A stretch of DNA of 34,367 nt, taken from positions 1 to 34,367 of the forward strand of contig JAZRBX010000120.1 of the NCBI GenBank assembly GCA_045635285.1. Reading direction: 5' to 3'. Under the pieces are notes generated by a model that was not told where the DNA came from, searched no databases, and saw only the letters and a list, made by a program, of their open reading frames with translations. Positions 2,694-28,913 of this stretch are shown here, piece by piece (positions within the stretch are counted from its first letter, which is position 1; every line of letters starts with the position of its first letter). Source of the DNA: Victivallaceae bacterium (GTDB lineage Bacteria; Verrucomicrobiota; Lentisphaeria; Victivallales; Victivallaceae). The position numbers and the translations under genes were made by a program.

Positions 2694-3542
2694 ATGGATA
2701 AAAACATCATGGATAATGTAAAAAAAGATAAAATTGATGTCCATCACCGTTTCGGAGAGATGTCGGAATTGCAGCAGGCATACGGATTGCGTATTTTAGG
2801 CGGCAGTTCGTGGCGGACAAACAAAGACAGTTATTACAAGTGTCCCACAAGATATTTTGAATTTTATTCCATAAGTTTCATGTATGACGGAGATGGCAAG
2901 TTCTGGTCGGAGGAAACAGGCGAAATCGATATAAAACCTCCGTCTTTCGTGCTTGTTTCCCCCCATGTGGTAAACCGTTACGGCGGAGCACACGGCAAAA
3001 CATATGCCGAAGATTCAGTTATTTTTTATGGTGATATTGCCGACAGACTTCTGCGTTCAGGCGTTTTCAAAACCGGAGTTTATCCGACCTCCATACTCCG
3101 CAAAGTACCTGCGATAGTTGAAAAAAGCCGCAATCCATCCGTTCAATCACAGCTCAATGCCAATATGGATTTGCAGAATCTTATTTTTGAGATATACAAC
3201 GAAAGCAAATCAGTTTCAAGTAAACCCGATGTGATCCACCGTGTGCTGGCGGAAATAAATGCCAATGTCGGCAAATGGTATCAGGTAAGTGAACTTGCGG
3301 AACTTGCGGAGATGAGCATTGCCACATTCCGCCGCAAATTTCAGCAGGAAACAGGTATGCTGCCCAAACGCTACATCGAAGAATTGAAAATAAACAGTGC
3401 CGCTGATGATTTATTGAAACTGCCGTTGAAAATCAGCGAAATTGCTTTGCGTTACGGATATTTTGACTGTTATCATTTCAGCCGCCGCTTCAAAATCATC
3501 AAAGGCTGTTCTCCTGAACAGTACCGCAAAACTTACAGCTGA
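2694..3542 (+). CDS. AraC family transcriptional regulator
   Basis: 282-aa ORF. The C-terminal double HTH is typical of AraC/XylS (ELAELAEMSIATFRRKFQQETGMLPKRYIEELKINSAADDL ... ISEIALRYGYFDCYHFSRRFKIIKGCSPEQYR). The N-terminal half looks like a sugar-binding cupin. It is divergent from the oxidoreductase pair. Confidence 0.85.
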   Translation: MDKNIMDNVKKDKIDVHHRFGEMSELQQAYGLRILGGSSWRTNKDSYYKCPTRYFEFYSISFMYDGDGKFWSEETGEIDIKPPSFVLVSPHVVNRYGGAHGKTYAEDSVIFYGDIADRLLRSGVFKTGVYPTSILRKVPAIVEKSRNPSVQSQLNANMDLQNLIFEIYNESKSVSSKPDVIHRVLAEINANVGKWYQVSELAELAEMSIATFRRKFQQETGMLPKRYIEELKINSAADDLLKLPLKISEIALRYGYFDCYHFSRRFKIIKGCSPEQYRKTYS

Positions 3543-4483: not shown

Positions 4484-5029
4484 TCAGCGTTTGAAAAGTT
4501 CGTTGACATCGACATTCTGCCGTTCTTCGTCCGGGATTTCAAAAAGGTCGCGGGTGCTGAAGCGTTTGATACCGCTCAAAAGACAGCCGGGGAAAGTCTG
4601 AACTGAATTATTGAAATCAGTAACAGCACTGTTGTATGCACGGCGTGCGGCGGCGAGTTGAGCTTCGATTTCATTGAGAGAATTTTGCAGATTTTTGATA
4701 CTGTCGGAGGCTTTGAGGTCGGGGTATGCTTCGACCTGCAGCATATAGTTCCGCAAAGAGCTTGTAATTTTGTTGTCGAGAACGGATTTTTCTGCGACGG
4801 AAGAGGCGTTGGAACGCATTTCGGCAAGTTTGCTCAAAGTTTCGTTTTCATGTTCCATATATTTGGCGGTAGCTGCGACGAGGTTTGGGATCAGGTCGAA
4901 TCTTTTTTTGAGCTGTACGTCGATGACTGCCAATGCGTAATCTACCGCATTTTTCTTCATGGTCATGCTGTTGAAAAGATATATGAAAATGATTACTGCA
5001 AAAATAATGACGATTCCGATTATGTTCAT
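4484..5029 (-). CDS. lemA: LemA family protein
   Basis: Single N-terminal TM helix (NIIGIVIIFAVIIFIYLF) and a LemA-type core (QLKKRFDLIPNLVAATAKYMEHENETLSKLAEMRS ... AARRAYNSAVTDFN). The start is set at the ATG at 5029 because GGAGG lies 5 nt upstream. The ORF track extends to 5086. Confidence 0.8.
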   Translation of the reverse strand: MNIIGIVIIFAVIIFIYLFNSMTMKKNAVDYALAVIDVQLKKRFDLIPNLVAATAKYMEHENETLSKLAEMRSNASSVAEKSVLDNKITSSLRNYMLQVEAYPDLKASDSIKNLQNSLNEIEAQLAAARRAYNSAVTDFNNSVQTFPGCLLSGIKRFSTRDLFEIPDEERQNVDVNELFKR

Positions 5030-9045: not shown

Positions 9046-9089
9046 GAGTTCAGACAAAACTGTTCAGTTTTTCTGAACTCATTTTTTTT
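9046..9089 (+). terminator. Rho-independent terminator
   Basis: Stem gagttcaga (9046-9054) / tctgaactc (9072-9080) followed by aTTTTTTTT. Confidence 0.7.
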
Positions 9090-9108: not shown

Positions 9109-9136
9109 TTGATAACTTTGTAAGAAATTATATAAT
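9109..9136 (+). promoter_or_regulatory. Sigma70-like promoter candidate (alternative 1) for DUF1559 gene 1
   Basis: TTGATA (9109-9114), 16-nt spacer, TATAAT (9131-9136). Confidence 0.4.
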
Positions 9137-9160: not shown

Positions 9161-9189
9161 TTGCTTTTTTTAAAAAGATGTGCTATCTA
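9161..9189 (+). promoter_or_regulatory. Sigma70-like promoter candidate (alternative 2, extended -10) for DUF1559 gene 1
   Basis: TTGCTT (9161-9166), a 17-nt spacer ending in TGc, then TATCTA (9184-9189). This is the same TGn layout as the other promoters in the window. It would place palindrome A1 about 10-40 nt into the transcript. Confidence 0.4.
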
Positions 9190-9206
9190 TATAGCAAGAC
9201 ATCGCA

Positions 9207-9236
9207 AACTTCTGATAATATTGATTATCGGAAGTT
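9207..9236. repeat. Palindromic element copy A1 (13-4-13, core ATTG)
   Basis: Sequence aacttctgataat-attg-attatcggaagtt. It has 13-bp arms with one T/C (G-U compatible) mismatch. It differs at one position from copy C1 at 27921-27950. Confidence 0.9.
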
Positions 9237-9368
9237 GAAAAAATAAGGAGATTAAGGAATTTAAGGAATTCAGAGAGGCTTGTTTTGAGCTGAAAACCTG
9301 AATTATCTGAACTCCCTGAAATCCATGAAAATGAATAAGAACTCACACCTTAACCAAAGGAGAAAATT
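9237..9368 (+). promoter_or_regulatory. Conserved leader upstream of DUF1559 gene 1 (homologous to 28011-28110)
   Basis: Three phased TAAGGA repeats start at 9244, 9253 and 9262. They are followed by gttttgagctgaaaac and then CT-rich tracts (ctgaactccctgaaatcc). The region aligns by eye with the leader of DUF1559 gene 3. Confidence 0.6.
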
Positions 9369-10172
9369 ATGAAAAACACCCTAAAACAACATCCGGTAAT
9401 CAATATTATCGGAAGCAAGTTCACCCTTATTGAACTGCTTGTTGTGATTGCAATTATCGCAATCCTCGCCGGCATGCTGCTCCCCGCTCTCGGTAAAGCC
9501 CGTGAACGCGCCAGAAGCGCCAGCTGTCTTTCCAATCTGAAACAGCATGGCCTTGTTGATCAGATGTATGCGCAGGATTATGACCAGTGGGTCGTTCAGC
9601 GTCTCGGTGGCATGTGGGACGGCACCAGTGATTGGGCAGGTGCATACAGCCGTTTGGGGTATTATGACGCAGGTACATCGCTTAATGCGTTCAGGTGTCC
9701 TGCTTTGGCAAATGATGTTGCTAATAATGATACCCGGCCTACCGCATATCAATATACCTATGGTGTTGAAACAAGTGCCAATAATATGAAGTTTGTTCCC
9801 AAAGCATATTTTCAAATTAATAATAACGGAACTGAAGGTAACCATAACCGTTTAATTACTTTGAAGCGTGTAGGCAGACCCGCAAACGCTTTCCATCATA
9901 TTGATTCTCTTTCCTCCTCATTGACCTATCAGACTTCCGGTATTGAAATCAATAATGGCGGCTCCAGCCGTCCTCATGCCCGTCACGGCGGCAGAATCAA
10001 CGCTGACTATCTTGACGGTCATGCTGAGAGCAAAACTCCTCAACAGTGGGCTGATGCTACTATCAACAGTTGCTTGTATATGAATCAGACTACCGGTACG
10101 GATTGGACCGTTGCATGTTTTGATGAAAACAAAACAAAGAAGACTTACGTTGGCAAATGGGAAGGCAATTGA
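9369..10172 (+). CDS. Prepilin-like N-terminal helix protein, DUF1559 / H-X9-DG family (copy 1)
   Basis: 267-aa ORF with an AAAGGAG RBS. It has the [37 protein letters not shown]-terminus and the C-terminal motif [12 protein letters not shown] (H, nine residues, DG). A terminator follows. Confidence 0.9.
9388..9417. repeat. Palindromic element copy A2 (core CAAT), embedded in codons 7-17 of DUF1559 gene 1
   Basis: Sequence aacatccggtaat-caat-attatcggaagca. It matches the reverse complement of C1 at 26 of 30 positions. It encodes (Q)HPVINIIGS. Confidence 0.85.
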
Positions 10173-10227: not shown

Positions 10228-10386
10228 ATGTTCTGTTTTTGAATGCGGGGATTGCGTTTCGATTGTGCTTTTTTAAAGAGGTTTCGGTGTTGAATATTGC
10301 TCTATTTTTCTGAATCAGTGATATATAAAAAGATGAAAAAATCTGTTGAAAAATGGAAAAATCTTCTCTTTTTAAACAAAAAAGAC

Positions 10387-10415
10387 TTGTTTTTTGAGAG
10401 TTTATACGCTATAAT
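10387..10415 (+). promoter_or_regulatory. Sigma70-like promoter for the DUF1559 gene 2 operon
   Basis: TTGTTT (10387-10392), 17-nt spacer, TATAAT (10410-10415). Confidence 0.5.
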
Positions 10416-10491
10416 TTAATCGAAACTCGACAGATTATTGCAGGAAAATGTAAATCTGTCAAAATATAAACTCTCAACTAAAGGAGAAAAA

Positions 10492-11256
10492 ATGAAGAAA
10501 AAATCACAATTCACTCTTATTGAACTCTTGGTCGTGATCGCCATCATCGCAATTCTCGCAGGTATGCTGCTCCCCGCCCTCGGCAAAGCCCGTGAACGCG
10601 CCAGAAGCGCCAGTTGTGTTTCCAATTTGAAACAGCACGCTCTTGTCGATATGATGTATGCCCAGGACAATGACGATTGGGTTCACAACTGGGGCGGCGG
10701 TATCGGTTGGGTAAATCCCAACGGTATGGCTTACTGGGCAGGTGTTTATGTCCGCAACGGCTACTACAATGAAAACAAGAGCGGCGACAATATTTTCAAA
10801 TGTCCTGCTTTTGCCAATACCGCAGTTGAAGATGCTCCCGAATGGCCGACCATGACTTACGGTGTCGTTACCAATGCAAATGACGGCAACTGGGAACCCC
10901 GTGCATTGCTGTTCTTCAATGATGATACCTGGCGTCTTATTTCTCTCAAACGCATTCAGAAACCCTCAAATACTTTCCATCACATCGACTCCATTGACGG
11001 AACTTGTGAAAATCAGACCGGTATGATGGGACTCGGTGAAAGTGCAGGTTCTTATACTCATGCCCGTCACAGCGGCAGAATCAATGCCGACTATCTTGAC
11101 GGTCATGCCGAAAGCAAGTCTCCGCAGCAGTGGGCTGATGCTTGTGCCAACAGCTTCTGCTATCAGAATACTTCCACCGGCGCAGACTTCACCGTCTGGT
11201 ATCGTGATGAAGCCAAAGAAAAGAAATCTGCTACCGGTAAATGGGAAGGCATGTAA
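10492..11256 (+). CDS. Prepilin-like N-terminal helix protein, DUF1559 / H-X9-DG family (copy 2)
   Basis: The start is set at the ATG at 10492 ([15 protein letters not shown]...), which follows an AAAGGAG RBS. The ORF track extends to 10438. The C-terminal motif is [12 protein letters not shown]. The C-terminal third is very similar to copy 1. Confidence 0.9.
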
Positions 11257-11278
11257 TATATTTTGCAAGGAGAAAAAA

Positions 11279-12928
11279 ATGAAGAAAATTTCAACAGTAT
11301 TACTTTTGATTTTCAGTTTTGTTTGCGCTTTCGCAAACATGCTGCCCACCGATTGGAATCAATGGACCAAAGACGGCGCAGGTGATTTCAATATCAACGG
11401 AAATACCGCTTCCGTCAAATATCACGGCGGTCAGAAAGTTGCGGCTTACAAATTCAATGCCAATGTTACAGGTGATAACTATTACATTTTTTCAGGCGAA
11501 TACAAACGCTTGTCCGAAAAAAGCGTCCCCAAAGTCCTCTACGTTTCCCGTACTCAGAAAAACGGCTGGATAGATCAGTATTGCGCTCCGCAGAGCAGTT
11601 CCGCCAAGGTCGGCGAATGGACAAAGTTTGAAGTTCGTGCCTATCTGCCGGATAATGCCGTTTTCGCTGACTTTACCGTCGGTTCAAAAGGTGATGCCGT
11701 CGAATTCAGAAATATGAAATTCGTCAAAGCCAACTTCAATGACCGCTCCGCCGATGCTCCCGAACTTGAATACTGGATCAATATGGACTGGAACGACAAT
11801 GTCCGTTATGCCAACCACATCGGTCATAAGTCTTACGGTGAAGAAGAAATCGTAAACTTTTTCAAATTGTGCAAACAAGCAGGAGTTACCGGCGTTTTCT
11901 GGCGCGTATCCGTAACCGGACAGATGGCTTATTGGAGCAAAGGCGCAGCAACCGTTTTCCCCGGTCATGTCAAATATGAACTGCTTGATAAAGATTTGCA
12001 GAGCACCGTCGATGTCCTCCGTCAGATCGACCCCCTTGCTGTCGCTGTCCGTGAAGCAAAGAAAAACGGTATCAAAATTTATGTCTGGATGACCCTCTCC
12101 GATGAAGGTTACAAAAAGGAAAACGACAAGGGCGAAATAATTATCCCCGATTACAGCTTCCCGAAATTCCTGATAGACAATCCCGACTGCCACCTGCTCG
12201 ACCGTCAGGGCAAACCGCTTTACGGCACTATCGCTTACAGCGAACCCAAATCCCGTGAATACCGTGTCAATATCGTCAAGGAATTGCTCGAATACAACGC
12301 AGACGGTCTTTATCTCTGCACCAGAACTCACAGCACCATCAACGGTATCGACAAATCAGGCAATGATTACGGCTTCAACAAAACTGTCGTCGAAGAATAC
12401 AAAAAACGCTACGGCGTCGATATTCTGACACAGGATTTTGATGTTAAAAAATTCCAGGACATCAAAGCCGAAGGTTTTGACAAACTCATTGAAGAAATCG
12501 GCACTCTTGTTCATGCCAAAGGGCAGAAAGTAATTCTCGGCGTTTCTTTCAACGGACTTTCTTCCGGTATACTTGGTTCAAACTGGGGCAAAATGCCTGT
12601 TCATTGGCAGAAATTCCTGCAGAATGAATGGATCGACGGCATCGTCAGCGGTCAGTACAATGTCGAACCGTTTTTCGCCACACGCGAAACTATGGCTTTC
12701 CGTGAAGTTGCCAAACCGCATCAGAAACTTTATTACTGGGCGCAGATGGTCAAATACGGAGTCGGTACTTACTCTCCCGCCAAACTGCTGAAACAGGCCG
12801 AATTCTTCGCCTTTCTGCAGGGCAACGGCGCCATGTATCACGAAGCGATGAACCTTGAAGGAAAAAAAGGTCAGAACGAGAAATATCTCTTTCCGATCGG
12901 CAAATTCTACAATCAGTTCAATAAATAA
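11279..12928 (+). CDS. Secreted two-module protein: N-terminal CBM-like beta-sandwich plus C-terminal glycoside-hydrolase-like TIM barrel (GHL10/DUF187-like layout), paralog P1
   Basis: The start is set at the ATG at 11279 (MKKISTVLLLIFSFVCAFA signal peptide, AAGGAG RBS). The ORF track's upstream extension overlaps the preceding gene. Motifs shared with P2-P4: YWINMDW, GVTGV.WR.S, DPLAVAVREAKKNGI.(I/L)Y.W.TLSDEG, EYR.N..KELLEY.ADGLY.CTR.HS, EYKKRYGVDILTQDFD. The GH-like assignment is inference from motif layout only. Confidence 0.8.
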   Translation: MKKISTVLLLIFSFVCAFANMLPTDWNQWTKDGAGDFNINGNTASVKYHGGQKVAAYKFNANVTGDNYYIFSGEYKRLSEKSVPKVLYVSRTQKNGWIDQYCAPQSSSAKVGEWTKFEVRAYLPDNAVFADFTVGSKGDAVEFRNMKFVKANFNDRSADAPELEYWINMDWNDNVRYANHIGHKSYGEEEIVNFFKLCKQAGVTGVFWRVSVTGQMAYWSKGAATVFPGHVKYELLDKDLQSTVDVLRQIDPLAVAVREAKKNGIKIYVWMTLSDEGYKKENDKGEIIIPDYSFPKFLIDNPDCHLLDRQGKPLYGTIAYSEPKSREYRVNIVKELLEYNADGLYLCTRTHSTINGIDKSGNDYGFNKTVVEEYKKRYGVDILTQDFDVKKFQDIKAEGFDKLIEEIGTLVHAKGQKVILGVSFNGLSSGILGSNWGKMPVHWQKFLQNEWIDGIVSGQYNVEPFFATRETMAFREVAKPHQKLYYWAQMVKYGVGTYSPAKLLKQAEFFAFLQGNGAMYHEAMNLEGKKGQNEKYLFPIGKFYNQFNK

Positions 12929-12949
12929 AATATACTGAATCTGTAAAGT

Positions 12950-12988
12950 AACTGCTGCAATCTTTTTACAGTTTGCAGCAGTTTTTTT
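12950..12988 (+). terminator. Rho-independent terminator
   Basis: Stem aactgctgcaa (12950-12960) / ttgcagcagtt (12973-12983), followed by a T-run to 12988. Confidence 0.8.
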
Positions 12989-13047
12989 ATACAGTGCAGA
13001 GATTTTCGTGAAAAAGAGGATAAATAGCAAAAAAAATTGCTTGCAAC

Positions 13048-13076
13048 TTGACAAAGCAGTTAAGCTGTGTTATAAT
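13048..13076 (+). promoter_or_regulatory. Consensus sigma70 promoter (extended -10) for the P2-P3 operon
   Basis: TTGACA (13048-13053), a 17-nt spacer ending in TGt, then TATAAT (13071-13076). Both hexamers are perfect. Confidence 0.7.
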
Positions 13077-13125
13077 ACCTTATCCTTGTATTTTTAACCA
13101 TGAAATATTAAAGAAAGTAAGAAAA

Positions 13126-14745
13126 ATGAAAAAATTACTGTTGCTGATGTCTGTTGCTTTTGCAGCTGTGCTTTCTGCTCTTGAACCTGTGCCTGCTTTT
13201 ACGGCATGGAAAAAAGACGGCGCAGGTGAATTCAAGGTTACAGAAAAAAGTGCCGTTGTTACATTTGTGAAAGGCAATCGCCCCGCTGCTCTCAAATATA
13301 AACTCGCAGTCGATCCCGACGGCTATTATGTTTTTACAGGTAAATTCAAACGCAACAGCGTTGACAGTGTGCCGCAGATCGATTTTGTCAGCCGCAATGC
13401 AAAAAATCAGTGGCTCGGTCAGTATTTCGCCCCCAAAGTCAAGGAAGCTCCTGTCGGTGAATGGCAGAATTTTGAAATTCGTGCTTATTTGAACAGCAGT
13501 ACCGCTTTCGCTGATATTACAGTAGGTTCTTTCGGCGGTTCTGTTGAAATCAAAGATCTCGCCTTTACCAAAAAAACTATCCACGACCGCCCCGCAAACG
13601 CTCCCGCTCCCGAATATTGGGTGAATATGGACTGGTGGGACAATGTTTATTATTGCAAAAATATGGGACTTAAAGATTACCGTGAGGCGGAAATCATCAA
13701 CTACTTCAAAGATTGCAAAGCCAAAGGCGTTACCGGCGTGCAGTGGCGTATCTCCGCTACCGGAACTGTGCTTTATCATACCAAAGGCGCAGCAACTCTC
13801 TATCCAGGAAAAGATATTGATTTGAATTTGCTGAATGAAAATCAGCGCCGTGTCGCTGAATCAATAAAGGCTTTTGACCCGCTCGCAGTCGCAGTTCGTG
13901 AAGCAAAGAAAAACGGTATCGAACTCTATATCTGGCTGACTCTCTCTGACGAAGGTTCAAAACATGATAAAATCAAACATTTGTCTTTCCCGGATTTCCT
14001 TATCAAAAATCCCGACTGCCATCTGCTCGACCGTCAGGGCAAACCGCTCTACGGCACTATTTGTTACAGCGATCCCCGCGCCCGTGAATACCGCTTGAAT
14101 ATGATCAAAGAATTGCTCGAATACGGTGCAGACGGGCTTTATATCTGTACTCGCAGTCACAGTTTCTTCTTCGGCAATGACAAAGGCGATGATTACGGCT
14201 TCAACAAATGTATCGTTGATGAATACAAAAAACGCTACGGCGTCGATATCTTGACCCAGGATTTTGATATCAAAAAATGGCGCGACCTCAAAGGTGAAGG
14301 TTTTGATATTCTCATTGAAGAAATCGGCAAACTTGCCCATGCAAAAAATCAGAAGGTCCGCCTCGGTCTTGCTTATATGACTCTTTCAAACAAATATCTC
14401 AGTTCAAACTGGGGTAAAATGACTGTCGATGTTGAAAAATATCTCCGCAACGGCTGGATCGATTCTGTCGTTACAGGTCAGTATCGTGTCAGTGCCGACT
14501 TCGGCAGCAAAGAGGTCAACCGCTTCAGAGAATATGCCCGTCCCGATCAGAAAATTTATTATTGGGCGCAGCTCTATTTCTACGGTCAGCGTATGGCGAC
14601 TGCTCTTGAAATCCTCAATCAGGCGGCATCTTTCAACTTCCTCGGTGCAAACGGCGCGATCATGCACGAATCTCTTAATCTTGAAGAACGCCCCGAAGAA
14701 TTCTTTGACTTTTTCGGTATCTGGTTTAATTCTTTTGCAAAATGA
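13126..14745 (+). CDS. Secreted CBM-like plus GH-like TIM-barrel protein, paralog P2
   Basis: The start is set at the ATG at 13126 (MKKLLLLMSVAFAAVLSA signal peptide). The ORF track's start at 13048 coincides with the promoter -35 box. It shares the family motifs listed for P1. Confidence 0.8.
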   Translation: MKKLLLLMSVAFAAVLSALEPVPAFTAWKKDGAGEFKVTEKSAVVTFVKGNRPAALKYKLAVDPDGYYVFTGKFKRNSVDSVPQIDFVSRNAKNQWLGQYFAPKVKEAPVGEWQNFEIRAYLNSSTAFADITVGSFGGSVEIKDLAFTKKTIHDRPANAPAPEYWVNMDWWDNVYYCKNMGLKDYREAEIINYFKDCKAKGVTGVQWRISATGTVLYHTKGAATLYPGKDIDLNLLNENQRRVAESIKAFDPLAVAVREAKKNGIELYIWLTLSDEGSKHDKIKHLSFPDFLIKNPDCHLLDRQGKPLYGTICYSDPRAREYRLNMIKELLEYGADGLYICTRSHSFFFGNDKGDDYGFNKCIVDEYKKRYGVDILTQDFDIKKWRDLKGEGFDILIEEIGKLAHAKNQKVRLGLAYMTLSNKYLSSNWGKMTVDVEKYLRNGWIDSVVTGQYRVSADFGSKEVNRFREYARPDQKIYYWAQLYFYGQRMATALEILNQAASFNFLGANGAIMHESLNLEERPEEFFDFFGIWFNSFAK

Positions 14746-14755
14746 TATTTGAAAA

Positions 14756-16375
14756 ATGAAAAAAATAGTATTAATCTTTCTGCTTTTGTCCGCCGCTGTA
14801 TGCATGTTCGCAGAGAATATGCTTCCCGCTTTCAATTTATGGAAAAAAATCGGTAACGGAGATATCAGTTTTTCTGAAAATGCTTTTGCCGTAACTCATA
14901 AAGGCGGAAAAAATGCCGCCGGTTTGACTTTCAGAGCCAAAGTAGAACCAAGTTCATGGTATTCCGTCAAAGGTAAAATCAAAAAATCCGCCGGTGCAAA
15001 TCCCGTCGTTTACTGTATCGTCCGTACCGCTAAAAACGGCTGGCTTTATCAATACAACGGCGCCGGCGTCAGACAGGCAAAAGCAGGTGAATGGTGCGAT
15101 TTTGAAATCCGTGTATGTCTGCCCGAAAGTGCAGCTGTTGCTGATTTGACTTGCGGCACCTCCAAAGGTTCTGTCGAATTCAAGGATGTCGTTTTTGAAA
15201 AATCTTCATGGCAGGACCGTTCCGATAAAGCAGGCAAATTGGAATACTGGATCAATATGGATTATTGCGATGAGATCGTTTATGCTCACAATATCGGTGT
15301 CGTCGGTGATGATCTTTATGATGAAAATGATATTGTCAAATTCTTTGAAGACTGCAAAAAGAACGGCGTTACCGGCGTGCAGTGGCGTGTTTCCCTCTTC
15401 GGCCACATGCTCTATCACAGCAAAGGTGCGGCGACAGTTTATCCCGGTTCAATGGATGTCAGCAAGCTCAATGAAAGCGGTATCAAGGTCGCAAAAGTTA
15501 TTCAGAAAATCGATCCTCTGGCTATCGCCGTCCGTGAAGCCAGAAAACACGGCATTGAAATTTATATCTGGATGACTCTTTCAGATGAGGGTTATAAACG
15601 GCTTGTTCCTGATTACTGCACCCCTGAATTCCTTATCAAAAATCCGCAGTACCACATGCTTGACCGTAACGGCAAACCGTGGAAAGGAACTATCTGTTAC
15701 AGCGAACCCGAAGCCCGCGAATACCGTTTGAACATTGTCAAAGAATTGCTTGAATACGGCGCAGACGGTCTTTATCTCTGCACCCGCTCTCACTGCAGCG
15801 TTTTTGATCATGATCCCAAAGCACTTTACGGTTTCAATAAAACTGTTGTTGAAGAATACAAAAAACGCTACGGCGTCGATATTCTGACCCAGGATTTTGA
15901 TGTTAAAAAGTTTCAGGCTCTCAAAGCGGAGGGCATTGACATGCTTATCGAAGAAATTGCCAAACTCGCTCATGCCAAAAATCAGAAAGTACGCCTCGGC
16001 GTTTCAATCGTTTCTCTGGCCAACAACAGCTGGAAAAATAACTGGGGAGAAGTCCCCTGTCATTGGCAGATGTATCTGGAAAAGGGCTGGATCGATTCCA
16101 TCGTCAGCGGTCAGTACAATGTCAGCGATTATTTTGCCTCCCGTGAATACAACCGTTTCGCTGAATTTGCAAAAGAGGGAAATAAATTTTATTCATGGGC
16201 ACAGATGGTCAAATACGGCGCAGGTGTTTATACCTATGAACAGTTGAGAGATCAGGCAAAAATTTTCAATTTCCTCGGTGCCAACGGCGGGATCTATCAT
16301 GAAGCGATAAATATGGAGGAACGACCTGATAAAATTTTTGCTCCTCTCGGTAAATTTTACAGCAATCCTCAATAA
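14756..16375 (+). CDS. Secreted CBM-like plus GH-like TIM-barrel protein, paralog P3
   Basis: 539-aa ORF lying 10 nt after P2. It has a signal peptide (MKKIVLIFLLLSAAVCMFA) and shares the family motifs. Confidence 0.8.
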   Translation: MKKIVLIFLLLSAAVCMFAENMLPAFNLWKKIGNGDISFSENAFAVTHKGGKNAAGLTFRAKVEPSSWYSVKGKIKKSAGANPVVYCIVRTAKNGWLYQYNGAGVRQAKAGEWCDFEIRVCLPESAAVADLTCGTSKGSVEFKDVVFEKSSWQDRSDKAGKLEYWINMDYCDEIVYAHNIGVVGDDLYDENDIVKFFEDCKKNGVTGVQWRVSLFGHMLYHSKGAATVYPGSMDVSKLNESGIKVAKVIQKIDPLAIAVREARKHGIEIYIWMTLSDEGYKRLVPDYCTPEFLIKNPQYHMLDRNGKPWKGTICYSEPEAREYRLNIVKELLEYGADGLYLCTRSHCSVFDHDPKALYGFNKTVVEEYKKRYGVDILTQDFDVKKFQALKAEGIDMLIEEIAKLAHAKNQKVRLGVSIVSLANNSWKNNWGEVPCHWQMYLEKGWIDSIVSGQYNVSDYFASREYNRFAEFAKEGNKFYSWAQMVKYGAGVYTYEQLRDQAKIFNFLGANGGIYHEAINMEERPDKIFAPLGKFYSNPQ

Positions 16376-16390
16376 AAATCCATTTGCAAG

Positions 16391-16419
16391 TCCCTGCTTT
16401 TACGGCAGGGATTTTTTTT
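16391..16419 (+). terminator. Rho-independent terminator
   Basis: Stem tccctgc (16391-16397) / gcaggga (16405-16411), followed by TTTTTTTT. Confidence 0.7.
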
Positions 16420-16481
16420 ATATCAGGTTTTAAAAAATTGTATAAAAACATATAAAATTGTAACTAAAATAAAAATCTTTG

Positions 16482-16510
16482 TTGCAAATTATTTAAATCG
16501 TGCATATAGT
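16482..16510 (+). promoter_or_regulatory. Sigma70-like promoter for the P4-GH20 operon
   Basis: TTGCAA (16482-16487), 17-nt spacer, TATAGT (16505-16510), with TG two nucleotides upstream of the -10 box. Confidence 0.45.
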
Positions 16511-16571
16511 AACTTTCAGTGTCAGAATTTATAAAATCGCAAACTCTTAAAAAATTATAAAAGGAGGAAAA

Positions 16572-18188
16572 ATGAAAAAAATAATCTTTTTGGCATCGAT
16601 TCTGTTAACTGCTGCTGTATATGCAGAAAATCTGCTGCCGTCTTTTGATCAATGGCGTCATACCGGTCCCGGTGTCTTCAAATGGAACGGCGGACAGCTT
16701 GCTGCCGAACATAAAGGAGGAAGCAGTAATGAAGCCGCTCTGGTAAGAAATATTTCTATTGACGGTGAAGGTTATTATGTAATGAAGGGCAAAGTCAAAA
16801 GAGTTGATGAAAAATCCGTTCCTGCCATTTATTTTATCAGCCGTACCGAGAAAAAAGGCTGGATTTTTCAGTATAACGCATACGACGCTTTGAATGCAAA
16901 GGTCGGAGAATGGACAGATTTTGCAATTCGTGCTTATATGCCCAATATCGCAAAAATTCTTGAAGTCGGTGTCGGATGTAAGAACGGTAAAGTTGAAGTA
17001 AAAGACCTTGTTCTTGAAAAAACTGATGCAAAAAATCGTGCTGACAATGCTCCCTCTGCTGAATACTGGATCAATATGGACTTCGGAGATGAAGTTGTTT
17101 ACAGTAAAAATATCGGTATTGATTTGTACGGCGAAAAGGCTATCGAACAGTTTTTCAAAAAATGCAAAGCCGCCAAAGTTACCGGTGTTTTGTGGCGTGT
17201 TTCCGAGTTCGGTCAGATGCTTTATTACAGCAAAGGTGCCGCAACCGTTTATCCCGGCAAGATGCCTTATGATAAACTTCCTGAACATCTGAAAAAAATG
17301 GCTGTCATCATGCAGTTTATCGACCCGCTTGCCGTCGCTGTTCGTGAAGCAAAAAAGAACGGCATCAAACTCTTTATTTGGATGACTCTCTCCGATGAGG
17401 GGTACAAGCGTGAAATCCCCAATTACGCTTTCCCCGAATTTCTGCTCAAAAACCCCGATTGCCACATGCTTGACAAAGAGGGAAAACCCTGGTACGGCAC
17501 TATCTGTTACAGCGAACCAAAATCCAGAGAATACAGACTTAATATTGTTAAAGAATTGGTCGAATACGGAGCAGACGGGCTTTATCTCTGCACCCGTTCA
17601 CACTGTTTCACTTTCGGTAATGACAAAGATGAACGCTACGGCTACAACAAAGCCATCGTTGATGAATATCAGAAACGCTACGGCGTAAACATCCTCAAAG
17701 AAGATTTTGACAAGAAAAAATGGTACGAACTCCGTGCCGAAGGTATTGATATTCTCATCGAAGAAATCAGCAAAATCGTCAAAGCCAAAAATCAGGAGAT
17801 CATGCTCGGCGTTTCCAGTACTTCCATCTCCAACGGCCGCTGGGAAAATAACTGGGGCGACAAAGTTCCGCTGCATTGGCAGAAATATTTGCAGAACGGC
17901 TGGATCGACCACATCCTTGCCGGTCAGTACAAAGTCGGTAATTATTGGATCGGCAGAGAAACCAACCGTTTCAAATCTGCCGCACTGCCGCACAATAAAT
18001 TGTATTTCTGGGCGCAGATGATTGAATACGGTAAAGGTGTCTACACCCTTGATCAGTTGAAAAATCAGGCAGAAGCTATCGTTTTTCACGGAGCAAACGG
18101 CGGTATGTATCATGAGGCAATCAATATGGAAGAGCAGGTCGAAAGCGTCATGAAACCGCTCGGAGAATGGTACAGCAAACAAAAGTAA
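16572..18188 (+). CDS. Secreted CBM-like plus GH-like TIM-barrel protein, paralog P4
   Basis: 538-aa ORF with an AAGGAGG RBS and a signal peptide (MKKIIFLASILLTAAVYA). It shares the family motifs (YWINMDF, DPLAVAVREAKKNGIKLFIWMTLSDEGY, EYGADGLYLCTRSHC, EYQKRYGVN). Confidence 0.8.
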   Translation: MKKIIFLASILLTAAVYAENLLPSFDQWRHTGPGVFKWNGGQLAAEHKGGSSNEAALVRNISIDGEGYYVMKGKVKRVDEKSVPAIYFISRTEKKGWIFQYNAYDALNAKVGEWTDFAIRAYMPNIAKILEVGVGCKNGKVEVKDLVLEKTDAKNRADNAPSAEYWINMDFGDEVVYSKNIGIDLYGEKAIEQFFKKCKAAKVTGVLWRVSEFGQMLYYSKGAATVYPGKMPYDKLPEHLKKMAVIMQFIDPLAVAVREAKKNGIKLFIWMTLSDEGYKREIPNYAFPEFLLKNPDCHMLDKEGKPWYGTICYSEPKSREYRLNIVKELVEYGADGLYLCTRSHCFTFGNDKDERYGYNKAIVDEYQKRYGVNILKEDFDKKKWYELRAEGIDILIEEISKIVKAKNQEIMLGVSSTSISNGRWENNWGDKVPLHWQKYLQNGWIDHILAGQYKVGNYWIGRETNRFKSAALPHNKLYFWAQMIEYGKGVYTLDQLKNQAEAIVFHGANGGMYHEAINMEEQVESVMKPLGEWYSKQK

Positions 18189-27920: not shown

Positions 27921-27950
27921 AACTTCCGATAATATTGATTATCGGAAGTT
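27921..27950. repeat. Palindromic element copy C1 (perfect 13-4-13, core ATTG)
   Basis: Sequence aacttccgataat-attg-attatcggaagtt. It starts 13 nt after the TAA at 27906-27908 and is followed by a T-rich tract. Confidence 0.9.
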
Positions 27951-28110
27951 GTTTGAGGTTGTTTTTAAACTTTTTTATTTTTGTTTAATGTTGTGTTTAT
28001 TTTATTATCAGAAAATTAAGGAGGTTAAAGGAGTTTAAAGAATTTAGTGTTTCAAGCTCAAAAATAAGACTCCCAAAATTCCTGAAACTCTCAAAACTCC
28101 TTATTCCTGC
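27951..28110 (+). promoter_or_regulatory. Leader bracketed by C1/C2: T-rich tract plus a block homologous to 9237-9350
   Basis: TAAGGAGG, TAAAGGAG and TAAAGAAT repeats start at 28017, 28026 and 28036. They are followed by gtttcaagctcaaaaa and then CT-rich tracts (gactcccaaaattcctgaaactc...ctcctta). TAAGGAG (28017-28023) is perfectly complementary to CTCCTTA (28097-28103). Confidence 0.6.
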
Positions 28111-28140
28111 AACTTCCGATAATCAATATTACAGGAAGTA
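28111..28140. repeat. Palindromic element copy C2 (core CAAT, degenerate right arm)
   Basis: Sequence aacttccgataat-caat-attacaggaagta. It matches the reverse complement of C1 at 27 of 30 positions and ends 23 nt upstream of the ATG at 28164. Confidence 0.85.
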
Positions 28141-28163: not shown

Positions 28164-28913
28164 ATGAAAAAGCAACAAAATTTCACTCTGATTGAACTTC
28201 TGGTCGTGATCGCAATTATCGCAATTCTTGCAGGTATGCTGCTCCCCGCACTCGGAAAAGCTCGTGAACGCGCCCGCGCTGCAAACTGTATCAGCAATCT
28301 CAAAAATTGTATTCAGGCTTCAATTTTTTATGCTGATGATCATGAAGGATGGAATTACCTCTCCATTGATACTTCCGCAAATAAACTCGGTTCACGCCTG
28401 ATCGGCTGGTCAGAATGGCTTATTTGCTATGGCTACATGAAAGAAGACACCAAAGCTTTCGGCTGCCCTTCAATGGAAGGTCCCAAAGATGAAGCTTCTG
28501 CAAGTTATTACGGCAATACCATGACTTTCGGAGTTCCTGCTTGCCCCGCTCATGTGCTGCCGGCTGAAATTTGTTCCACAACCAACGACGGTGCAAACCA
28601 TTATCTCAACGCCAAGAGAATTGACAATCCCTCCTACTTCACCTATTTCGCAGATACTGTAAATGCCGCAGGGCAGCAGGTCAACAGCTGGTATATCACC
28701 AACAGCTGGAACGCTTATATGCACGCACGCCATAACAACGCTGTCAATATGGCATTTATGGACGGTCATGTCGGAACTCACAAGCCGATGGAGATTTGGG
28801 ATATAAATCTCGGAAGCAAGCACTCCTTTTCAACTTGCTATTCAACCGCAAGAAGCGGCTGCAACTGGTACAATAAAGATATTGTTATCAAGAAATTCAA
28901 TGTAAATCAATAA
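28164..28913 (+). CDS. Prepilin-like N-terminal helix protein, DUF1559 / H-X9-DG family (copy 3)
   Basis: 249-aa ORF with the N-terminus [42 protein letters not shown] and the C-terminal motif [12 protein letters not shown] (H, nine residues, DG). Confidence 0.9.

Follow-up and report, generated by a model that had tools for sequence, protein, structure and literature searches.

A probable DNA inversion switch carrying the translational start of a pilin-like gene in a Victivallaceae bacterium

Short invertible segments that turn a surface fibre or surface locus ON or OFF through tyrosine recombinases are familiar from fimS of Escherichia coli (FimB/FimE) and from the invertible promoters of Bacteroides, where some of the recombinases act in trans, and vsa of Mycoplasma pulmonis is a comparable switch of surface lipoproteins. 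Here we describe a pair of inverted 30-bp sites, A1 and A2, that brackets the start of a pilin-like gene of the DUF1559 type (gene 1) in a 34,367-nucleotide stretch of DNA, hereafter the window, from a Victivallaceae bacterium of the Lentisphaeria (contig JAZRBX010000120.1). We conclude that this locus (locus 1) is very probably a site-specific DNA inversion switch of the kind called a partial intergenic inverton. Whereas the fimS and Bacteroides segments carry a promoter, the window segment carries a translation start, and the best promoter candidates lie outside it.

Partial intergenic invertons (Milman et al. 2023; Chanin et al.), as far as the available text of PMC10028968 describes them, likewise have one inverted repeat within a gene and the other outside it, and their inversion alters the 5' end of the coding sequence. 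Those described in that text are often longer, shufflon-type elements in which homologous domains are swapped, whereas the window segment is a 151-bp cassette with a ribosome-binding site, an ATG and six codons only, and the promoter is fixed. In the Vpma system of Mycoplasma agalactiae the recombinase is Xer1, a Xer-like tyrosine recombinase (PMC2268961), and the enzyme acting on the window sites would be of a similar type. In both systems surface-protein genes have a recombination site at their 5' end, and the moving element brings the start or signal-peptide part (PMC2268961). However, Mycoplasma shuffles a single expression site among numerous silent genes and has an adjacent recombinase gene, whereas in the window the gene has a private cassette that would flip in place, and no recombinase gene was found at the locus. 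The hsdS "epigenetic invertons" of Type I restriction-modification systems, two loci of which have been reported in Lentisphaerae, are flipped by PsrA/CreX-type tyrosine invertases (PMC7672463); their targets are specificity subunits and their repeats are ∼100 bp long, compared with pilin-like genes and 30-bp sites in the window, to which the hsdS recombinase family is linked by association only. Finally, dif, the target of XerCD, has a 28–30 bp core region that has ATAAT-N4-ATTAT in common with the window sites (PMC3025954), but dif is a single-copy site at the terminus that serves as a direct repeat for resolution under FtsK, whereas the window sites are inverted multi-copy pairs at gene starts. 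Modules that exploit Xer recombination are known, such as the pdif modules of Acinetobacter (PMC9947245).

The window contains four copies of AACTTCCGATAAT-N4-ATTATCGGAAGTT, arranged as two inverted pairs, where none would be expected by chance. A scan with TTCCGATAAT-N4-ATTATCGGAA, allowing up to three mismatches, returned exactly four matches in 34 kb (at 9210, 9391, 27924, and 28114), compared with no match in any of 100 shuffled sequences. The scan, together with direct reading, thus recovered all four 30-bp elements where a preliminary description of this DNA had placed them. Each element, none of which is assigned a strand, consists of two 13-nt palindromic arms around a 4-nt core. The left site A1 (9207–9236; aacttctgataatATTGattatcggaagtt) has the core ATTG and the right site A2 (9388–9417; aacatccggtaatCAATattatcggaagca) has CAAT; similarly, B1 (27921–27950), whose arms are perfectly palindromic and which lies 12 nt past the stop codon of an ADP-ribosylglycohydrolase gene, has ATTG, and B2 (28111–28140) has CAAT. 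Therefore, the asymmetric core is reverse-complemented between the partners of both pairs, as had been proposed for A1 and A2. The start-to-start spacing is 181 bp for the A pair, again as described before, and 190 bp for the B pair, and the inverted repeats are complementary at 90% over 29 nt (A1/A2) and 93% over 30 nt (B1/B2).

The segment between A1 and A2 (9237–9387, forward strand, 151 bp) lies in the orientation that joins its own start codon to gene 1. The preliminary description had stated that the bracketed DNA holds the start of the gene, and this is so: the Shine-Dalgarno sequence AAAGGAG (9356–9362), the ATG (9369–9371; both within 9356–9371 on the forward strand) and the first six codons of gene 1 are all borne on the segment. 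Gene 1 (9369–10172, forward strand), the putative target of the switch, has an N-terminal methylation motif; it matched PF07963 at 21.2 bits, equal to the cut-off, and PF07596 (DUF1559) at 23.2 bits against a cut-off of 23.3. Annotations of its homologs name DUF1559 or type II secretion proteins, and we assign it to the prepilin-type/DUF1559 proteins. In frame, site A2 encodes the leader residues (Q)HPVINIIGS(K), with FTLIELL directly after them. Such in-frame placement of the gene-proximal site is also seen in L032, L034, L074, L078, L120, L123, L135, L137, and L232 (L numbers designate loci from other genomes and metagenomes).

The best promoter candidate, the sigma-70-like TTGATA-N16-TATAAT at 9109–9136 (forward strand; 11 of 12 consensus positions), lies upstream of the segment and outside it. 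A second, weaker and putative fixed promoter, TTGCTT-N17-TATCTA at 9161–9189 (forward strand), ends 17 nt upstream of A1, and its position is kept in relatives (TTGCTT-N17-TATAAT in L232 and TTGCAT-N17-TATAAT in L021). A terminator-like hairpin of the preceding gene is found at 9062–9078. Candidate promoters inside the segment (TTGAGC-N17/18-TAAACT and TTAACC-N18-TAAAAT) were weak and inconsistently placed. Because the best promoter candidates are outside the segment, the switch would act on the translational start and not on the promoter. At the distal end of the segment, direct reading revealed a tandem 9-bp array, TAAGGAGAT-TAAGGAATT-TAAGGAATT (9244–9270, forward strand), which is conserved in L232, L021, and the long segments of L133, L135, and L137. 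Repeats of the form TAAGGAATT or TAGGGAATT occur in three or four copies (window 9244–9270; L133 60–100; L135 ∼2660–2700 and 2960–3000), in the long segments just upstream of a TTGACT-N17/18 promoter, and could be a binding array for an activator or accessory protein.

Inversion of locus 1 in silico leaves 41 open codons upstream of FTLIELL with neither an ATG nor a Shine-Dalgarno sequence, and the flipped form is an OFF state. The cargo of the segment is thus such that its orientation alters expression, and the prediction in the preliminary description that inversion would detach the start from the FTLIELL-encoding body is borne out. An intrinsic terminator formed in the flipped state by a site and a T-rich tract fell below terminator criteria and was dropped as the main mechanism. 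We therefore propose the following scheme. A fixed promoter upstream of A1 would transcribe into the 151-bp invertible cassette, which would supply the 5' untranslated region, the Shine-Dalgarno sequence, the ATG and the first six codons (MKNTLKQ) of the pilin-like protein, and the gene-proximal site would encode the final ten residues of the leader, which prepilin-type processing presumably cleaves off. A recombinase whose gene lies beyond the window would exchange strands in the region of the 4-nt asymmetric core of the 30-bp dif-like sites. The orientation in the window would leave gene 1 translatable (ON), and the opposite orientation would place in front of FTLIELL a frame with no start codon and no ribosome-binding site (OFF).

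Direct evidence for inversion comes from a locus in related gut bacteria that was recovered in both orientations. Loci L137 and L138 derive from samples ERZ27256852 and ERZ28653803, respectively, and L135 and L136 from ERZ27256853 and ERZ28653969. Compared with L135, L137 is collinear on the left (L137 1–248 with L135 2268–2514, 99.6%), reversed over the next 596 bp (L137 224–819 with L135 3083–2488, 99.8%) and collinear again on the right (L137 793–3742 with L135 3059–6009, 99.7%). Similarly, L138 is reversed from its contig start over 451 bp (L138 1–451 with L135 2938–2488, 99.8%) and collinear thereafter (L138 425–3207 with L135 3059–5842, 99.96%), and L136 has the orientation of L135, as judged by inspection of the upstream sequence only. 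The flanks of the locus are therefore collinear at 99.6–99.96%, the inverted 596 bp include the sites, and the junctions fall inside the two 30-bp sites. Further, flipping L135 in silico creates the reading frame ATG AAA AAC AAC CTC AAA CAA CAT GAC AAA ATA CAA ACT ATC GGA AGT TGC, and the resulting leader, MKNNLKQHDKIQTIGSC, is exactly the P0298 leader that L137 and L138 encode. Because the assembly k-mers (k141) far exceed the sites in length and both states were obtained from two samples each, an assembly artefact is unlikely. These comparisons demonstrate directly that site-specific inversion occurs in the Lentisphaeria site family. Pairs in opposite states were also found at non-orthologous loci (L133 and L123, L032 and L120, L034 and L112).

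Both orientations are also present within the window itself. The segment between B1 and B2 (locus 2; 27951–28110, reverse strand) aligns to the reverse complement of 9237–9387 with 112 identities in 147 positions and a score of 53.5, compared with 30.5 for the forward alignment and 6.9 ± 2.5 for the shuffle null. Because the interior of locus 2 matches the reverse complement of that of locus 1, the two paralogous segments are oppositely oriented. The preliminary description had seen the arrangement of locus 1 recur at 27921–28140; the inverted sites with reverse-complemented cores do recur, but the interior is flipped, and the ATG of the pilin-like gene 2 (28164–28913, forward strand; PF07963) lies outside the bracket, 24 nt past B2, through which the frame open with gene 2 persists. 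The former start codon of the segment has decayed from ATG to TTT. Locus 2 is thus a decayed or derived copy, in which a paralog may have been captured in the other orientation, the cassette ATG lost, and a start gained by the gene itself; its switch would be decayed or would now affect transcription only. Taken with the same-locus flip in relatives and its breakpoints in the sites, the opposed orientations of loci 1 and 2 bear out the inversion interpretation of the preliminary description in kind.

Leader peptides of homologous proteins bear the marks of the same exchange. The leader MKNTLKQ of gene 1 matches MKNNLKQ leaders in 42 of 110 homolog clusters, in which MKNNLKQ is followed by 9–10 site-encoded residues. 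Members of single 90%-identity protein clusters diverge only upstream of the core-encoded residues, as in MKNNLKQHDK|IQTIGSC compared with ..MLCLQLPI|IQTIGSC and MKNNLKQHDR|INIIGS compared with MLCLQLPI|INIIGS. Such hybrid leaders are what an exchange at the core would produce, since the gene-side half-site would be kept and its partner would come from the opposite end of the segment.

A scan of representative genomes found clusters of sites in Victivallaceae/Lentisphaeria metagenome-assembled genomes (MAGs), in two termite-gut MAGs labelled Prevotellaceae, and in three Clostridia genomes or MAGs. The sites in relatives are often paired, 146–191 bp apart, and their cores vary by genome yet are reverse-complemented within a pair (ATAC/GTAT, AATA/TATT, CAGA/TCTG, ATAT/ATAT); this held for 16 of the 17 pairs examined (cores ATTG, ATAC, AATA, CAGA, ATAT, GTGT, and TTGT), the exception being L074. 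In Lentisphaeria the gene-proximal site is always in frame and 0–3 codons before FTLIELL (..LPIINIIGS-FTLIELL, ..LPIMYIIGS-FTLIELL). The closest counterpart of locus 1 is L232, which belongs to another organism, from one of the samples that yielded L135–L138, and which has the same layout: TTGCTT-N17-TATAAT outside, core ATTG, an interior of ∼150 bp, AAAGGAG, ATG with MKNNLKQ, and an in-frame CAAT site. Exact look-ups of the window proteins in public assemblies gave no match; the next homolog is 59% identical, and its neighbouring genes are not syntenic with the window. Many of the Lentisphaeria sites lie 100–260 bp or less from a contig end, and the switch family explains why these genes are so often found at contig ends in metagenome assemblies.

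The sites themselves point to the recombinase. The preliminary description had labelled them lox-, hix- or fim-type; the topology of an inversion switch stands, but the sites are nearer to the dif sites of Xer tyrosine recombinases than to hix. They have the Xer/dif architecture of ∼11–13 bp arms around an asymmetric 4–8 bp spacer, and the left arm of A1 agrees with the XerC-side arms of predicted dif sites at 9–11 of 12 positions (dif sequences from PMC3025954). The arm ACTTC(C/T)GATAAT matches the XerC-side dif arms of Chlamydia abortus at 11 of 12 positions and those of Akkermansia and Bacillus subtilis at 10 of 12 (PMC3025954). In the window, distinct XerC and XerD arms are not seen, both arms being of the XerC type (palindromic), and the four copies within 19 kb, at gene starts, differ from a single dif at the terminus. 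In relatives, the cassette-side arm (ATTnTGTCATGT) is XerD-like (10 of 12 to Frankia alni), and each pair has one site that looks like a canonical C-D site and one that resembles a C-C site; the left site of L135, ACTTCCGATAGT-TTGT-ATTTTGTCATGT, is an example with a XerD-like arm. To judge from these features, the element would work like a Xer site but is not dif. The likeness to Cre/lox is architectural only, with a variable 4-nt spacer and conserved TAAT/ATTA flanks, and the window sites are not known to resemble loxP in sequence.

Copies of the site elsewhere lie directly beside tyrosine recombinase genes. Perfect palindromic copies were found in this position at more than 20 loci, including Asaia and Thalassomonas-type loci. 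In L069 (2957–4160), L012 (3880–5075), L100 (1906–3310), and ∼20 further loci, a perfect CTTCCGATAAT-N4-ATTATCGGAAG lies 20–90 bp from a tyrosine integrase gene; the Asaia copy follows hisF and a HIT-family gene and adjoins a restriction-modification methylase, and some Oceanospirillales/Alteromonadales-type loci have two or three recombinase genes in tandem. These are probably attachment sites of integrative elements. In L076 (Lachnospiraceae), a site pair lies 150 bp upstream of the gene for a 267-amino-acid Xer-like recombinase, relatives of which, at 75% identity, sit between hsdS genes, where hsdS segments flip at similar sites; at the hsdS breakpoints (AACTTCTCATAAT-GAGA-ATTAT...) the left arm matches that of A1 at 12 of 13 positions. 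A homolog search with the L076 recombinase returned Firmicutes-type relatives only and no Lentisphaeria candidate. In hsdS shufflons from Hadza human-gut samples (L222 1377/3349 and L223 1377/3400), a recombinase-containing segment is inverted between samples, and dif-like sites (TAGAAGGGATAAT-TCTC-ATTATGAGAAGTT and its complement) form the ends of the ∼100-bp inverted repeats. Because the sites are dif-like and tyrosine recombinase genes lie beside copies elsewhere, the enzyme is most likely a Xer-like tyrosine recombinase that acts in trans from a gene beyond the window. A bolder and only tentative extension is that Lentisphaeria have turned dif-like, Xer-bound sites into genome-wide phase variation, with the housekeeping XerC/XerD or a single Xer paralog in trans flipping dozens of private start-codon cassettes.

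Several observations weigh against this explanation of locus 1. The collections contain no second contig of the species, so that inversion at 9207–9417 itself was not observed. When A2 is reverse-complemented and set against A1, 5 of the 30 positions are mismatched and only 14 contiguous central bases are identical, compared with 20 in the proven L135/L137 pair. As noted in the preliminary description, there is no recombinase gene in the window: Pfam on 20 large open reading frames (ORFs) detected none, and phmmer with XerD, Hin, and two integrases found no match among window ORFs of at least 80 amino acids. Similarly, regular-expression and phmmer searches of 8-kb blocks from Lentisphaeria and Bacteroidales revealed no recombinase beside the switches of either group. 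Further, the opposite orientation of the ∼560-bp segments found in relatives supplies an in-frame ATG (MLCLQ) that has no Shine-Dalgarno sequence and points a TTGACT promoter at the gene, and these long-segment switches may exchange leaders or promoters rather than act strictly as ON/OFF devices. Finally, the cores of the L074 switch (4546–4700), whose two palindromes are built from a pair of XerD-like arms (aacatgacataatATACattctgtcatgtt) in one case and a pair of XerC-like arms in the other, do not match (ATAC compared with GTGT). Because of this mismatch some copies are probably locked, L074 in the orientation that parts the ATG cassette from the gene. The divergence of A1 from A2, the L074 cores, the lack of a recombinase in the window and the clear decay of locus 2 (ATG lost, own gene start) would all fit a fossil switch, that is, descent from an active inverton with locus 1 now locked ON by site decay or loss of the recombinase. 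This sole serious rival is plausible for locus 2, has less force for locus 1, and overall we regard it as unlikely: A1 and A2 are identical in the core and its flanks, GATAAT-ATTG-ATTA, the window has matching cores throughout (ATTG/CAAT in both pairs), the paralog interiors are 76% conserved compared with 69% in the adjoining coding DNA, and L232 keeps layout and cores in another organism. That locus 1 switches in its own host is what we infer from its sequence.

The other explanations have to account for the same inversions, and they fare worse. A Hin/Gin-type serine invertase acting on hix-like sites seems improbable. Such sites have a similar length and are near-palindromic, the B2 half-site TTCCTGTAAT resembles the gix half-site TTCCTGTAAA, and Hin-like genes lie within a few kilobases of two singleton sites (L161 and L164). 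However, the central dinucleotide is palindromic in the cores of several site pairs (ATAC/GTAT, AATA/TATT, ATAT) and would give a serine invertase no polarity, which disfavours this enzyme class; hix and gix have a 12-2-12 design with a non-palindromic centre, whereas the present family includes pairs with a central TA or AT, the sequence match is to dif and not to hix, no serine recombinase lies beside paired sites, and the genes directly beside such sites, at more than 20 loci, encode tyrosine recombinases. More doubtful still is an RNA element in which A1:A2 pairing or self-folding of the sites controls translation or stability with no DNA rearrangement. The region 9197–9425 does fold with a 24-bp A1:A2 helix around the ribosome-binding site (−60.4 kcal/mol, z = −6.75), but such a fold is automatic for any inverted repeat, no Rfam family matched in the window, B1 lies outside any obvious 5' untranslated region, 12 nt past a stop codon, and DNA inversion is directly seen in homologs. 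The predicted helix could, as a side effect in the ON state, be a target of RNase III or a damper of translation. The alternative offered in the preliminary description, an operator pair through which a dimeric repressor, such as the local GntR or AraC regulator, loops ∼180 bp, draws on the palindromic 13-4-13 architecture, the place of A1 just downstream of the promoter candidates, and the regulator genes in the window; we consider it highly improbable, since looping explains neither the reverse-complemented paralog interiors, nor cores that are reverse-complemented within pairs yet free between loci, nor same-locus inversions with breakpoints in the sites, nor the hybrid leader peptides. Least credible is an element of the miniature inverted-repeat transposable or REPIN-like type, with terminal inverted repeats and a short non-coding body inserted either way round. 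A multi-copy unit with inverted 30-bp ends around 150–190 bp, found in both orientations and often at contig breaks, would suit it, but target-site duplications are absent at the window loci, the gene-proximal end is always in frame 0–3 codons before FTLIELL, and in the termite Bacteroidales copies the conserved unit runs past both sites. Further, the orientation differs at one locus with identical flanks, and because the flanks stay identical the change is an inversion and not excision with reinsertion. Operator, RNA, and transposable-element explanations thus fail on the same-locus inversions, the recombinant leaders and the fixed in-frame position of the site, and we retain the inversion switch as the explanation of locus 1.

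Beyond these loci, further copies of the sites and segments were noted. In L021 (1–420; Victivallaceae), a left site and cassette body are fused directly to a homolog of window 10360–10437, as though a deletion had removed the right site together with the gene 1 counterpart. Within a low-GC genome, a GC-rich block of ∼200 nt (gcgcggttagcgccgcgaggtctgaagcggttacgagcgaagcgaagtaagcgatggcaag...) is conserved in the long invertible segments of different genes (L120 2680–2900, L123 240–470, L124, and L125); Rfam gave no match in the L120 and L123 long segments, this block included. Invertons with the same arms are found in the termite-gut MAGs labelled Prevotellaceae (L098 6251–6471, L064 4320–4540, L006 3826–4040, L010, L103, L049, L056, and L104), at least 10 in one and at least 4 in the other, and several lie directly upstream of genes of a secreted-protein family (MKKI..LFLCL.P.FGQS...LGADYAATPPTVTFEV). 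In a mouse-gut MAG labelled Eubacteriales (L019 1533–1708), an AATA/TATT pair with a 116-bp interior lies ∼700 bp upstream of a flagellin gene; this may be a phase switch for flagella that uses sites of this class. A perfect site at a contig start directly precedes the ATG of a secreted protein that is not a pilin (L009 32–61), and the switch family may therefore not be restricted to pilin-like genes. Contigs L016 and L096 have sites at both ends and only housekeeping genes between them, and a scan of viral contigs found unpaired sites only. Not every pattern match is a recombination site, because the Bacteroidota singletons L045 (4045) and L052 (1471) lie inside murF-like ORFs, where the palindrome encodes the P-loop PVIGITGS, and these were excluded, as were, by sequence form, the other Bacteroidota singletons of the form TTCCGGTAAT-NGGN-ATTAC(C/A)GGAAG. 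In murF-like ORFs this form is a chance coding palindrome that mimics both the site and the PIINIIGS peptide.

In the window, gene 1 is followed by another pilin-like gene (10438–11256; the third in the window), which, like its upstream region (10360–10437), has no sites. Downstream of the two pilin-like genes, positions 11036–18188 hold four tandem paralogous genes for proteins of ∼540–630 amino acids with 60–80% DNA identity, which account for the repeat families D1–D4, D8, D9, D11, D12, and D14; Pfam on one member gave no match. Because GH20, SSF transporter, GH94, and PIG-L genes follow, the region resembles an operon for glycan utilisation.

Inversion switches, partial intergenic invertons (PMC10028968), Xer1-driven Vpma variation (PMC2268961), and hsdS invertons (PMC7672463) are already known. 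New here are the target family and the phylum, the combination of a fixed promoter with a flippable start-codon cassette, the translation of the crossover site within the leader, and a dif-like site class common to three phyla, in the invertons of Lentisphaeria, termite-gut Bacteroidales, and Clostridia. The literature searched contained no paper tying invertons to DUF1559 or to Lentisphaeria pilin-like genes, and a search for the site sequence returned primer matches only. The locus thus adds a compact inverton design, in which the promoter is fixed, the translation start would flip, and the crossover site is concealed within a presumably cleaved leader.

Few protein families of the Planctomycetes-Verrucomicrobia-Chlamydiae group are as expanded and as poorly understood as the DUF1559/prepilin-like proteins. 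The cassette-type leaders in 42 of 110 clusters suggest that many DUF1559 pilin-like proteins are individually phase-variable, and such individual variability would therefore point to surface exposure and to fluctuating selection by phage, host, or substrate. Mutants locked ON or OFF would offer a handle for functional work. If the Xer extension is true, many DUF1559 pilin-like proteins that head glycan-utilisation operons would be individually switched, the crossover site would be translated within a presumably cleaved leader, and the pairing of C-D with C-C sites in relatives could give the switch a built-in directional bias.

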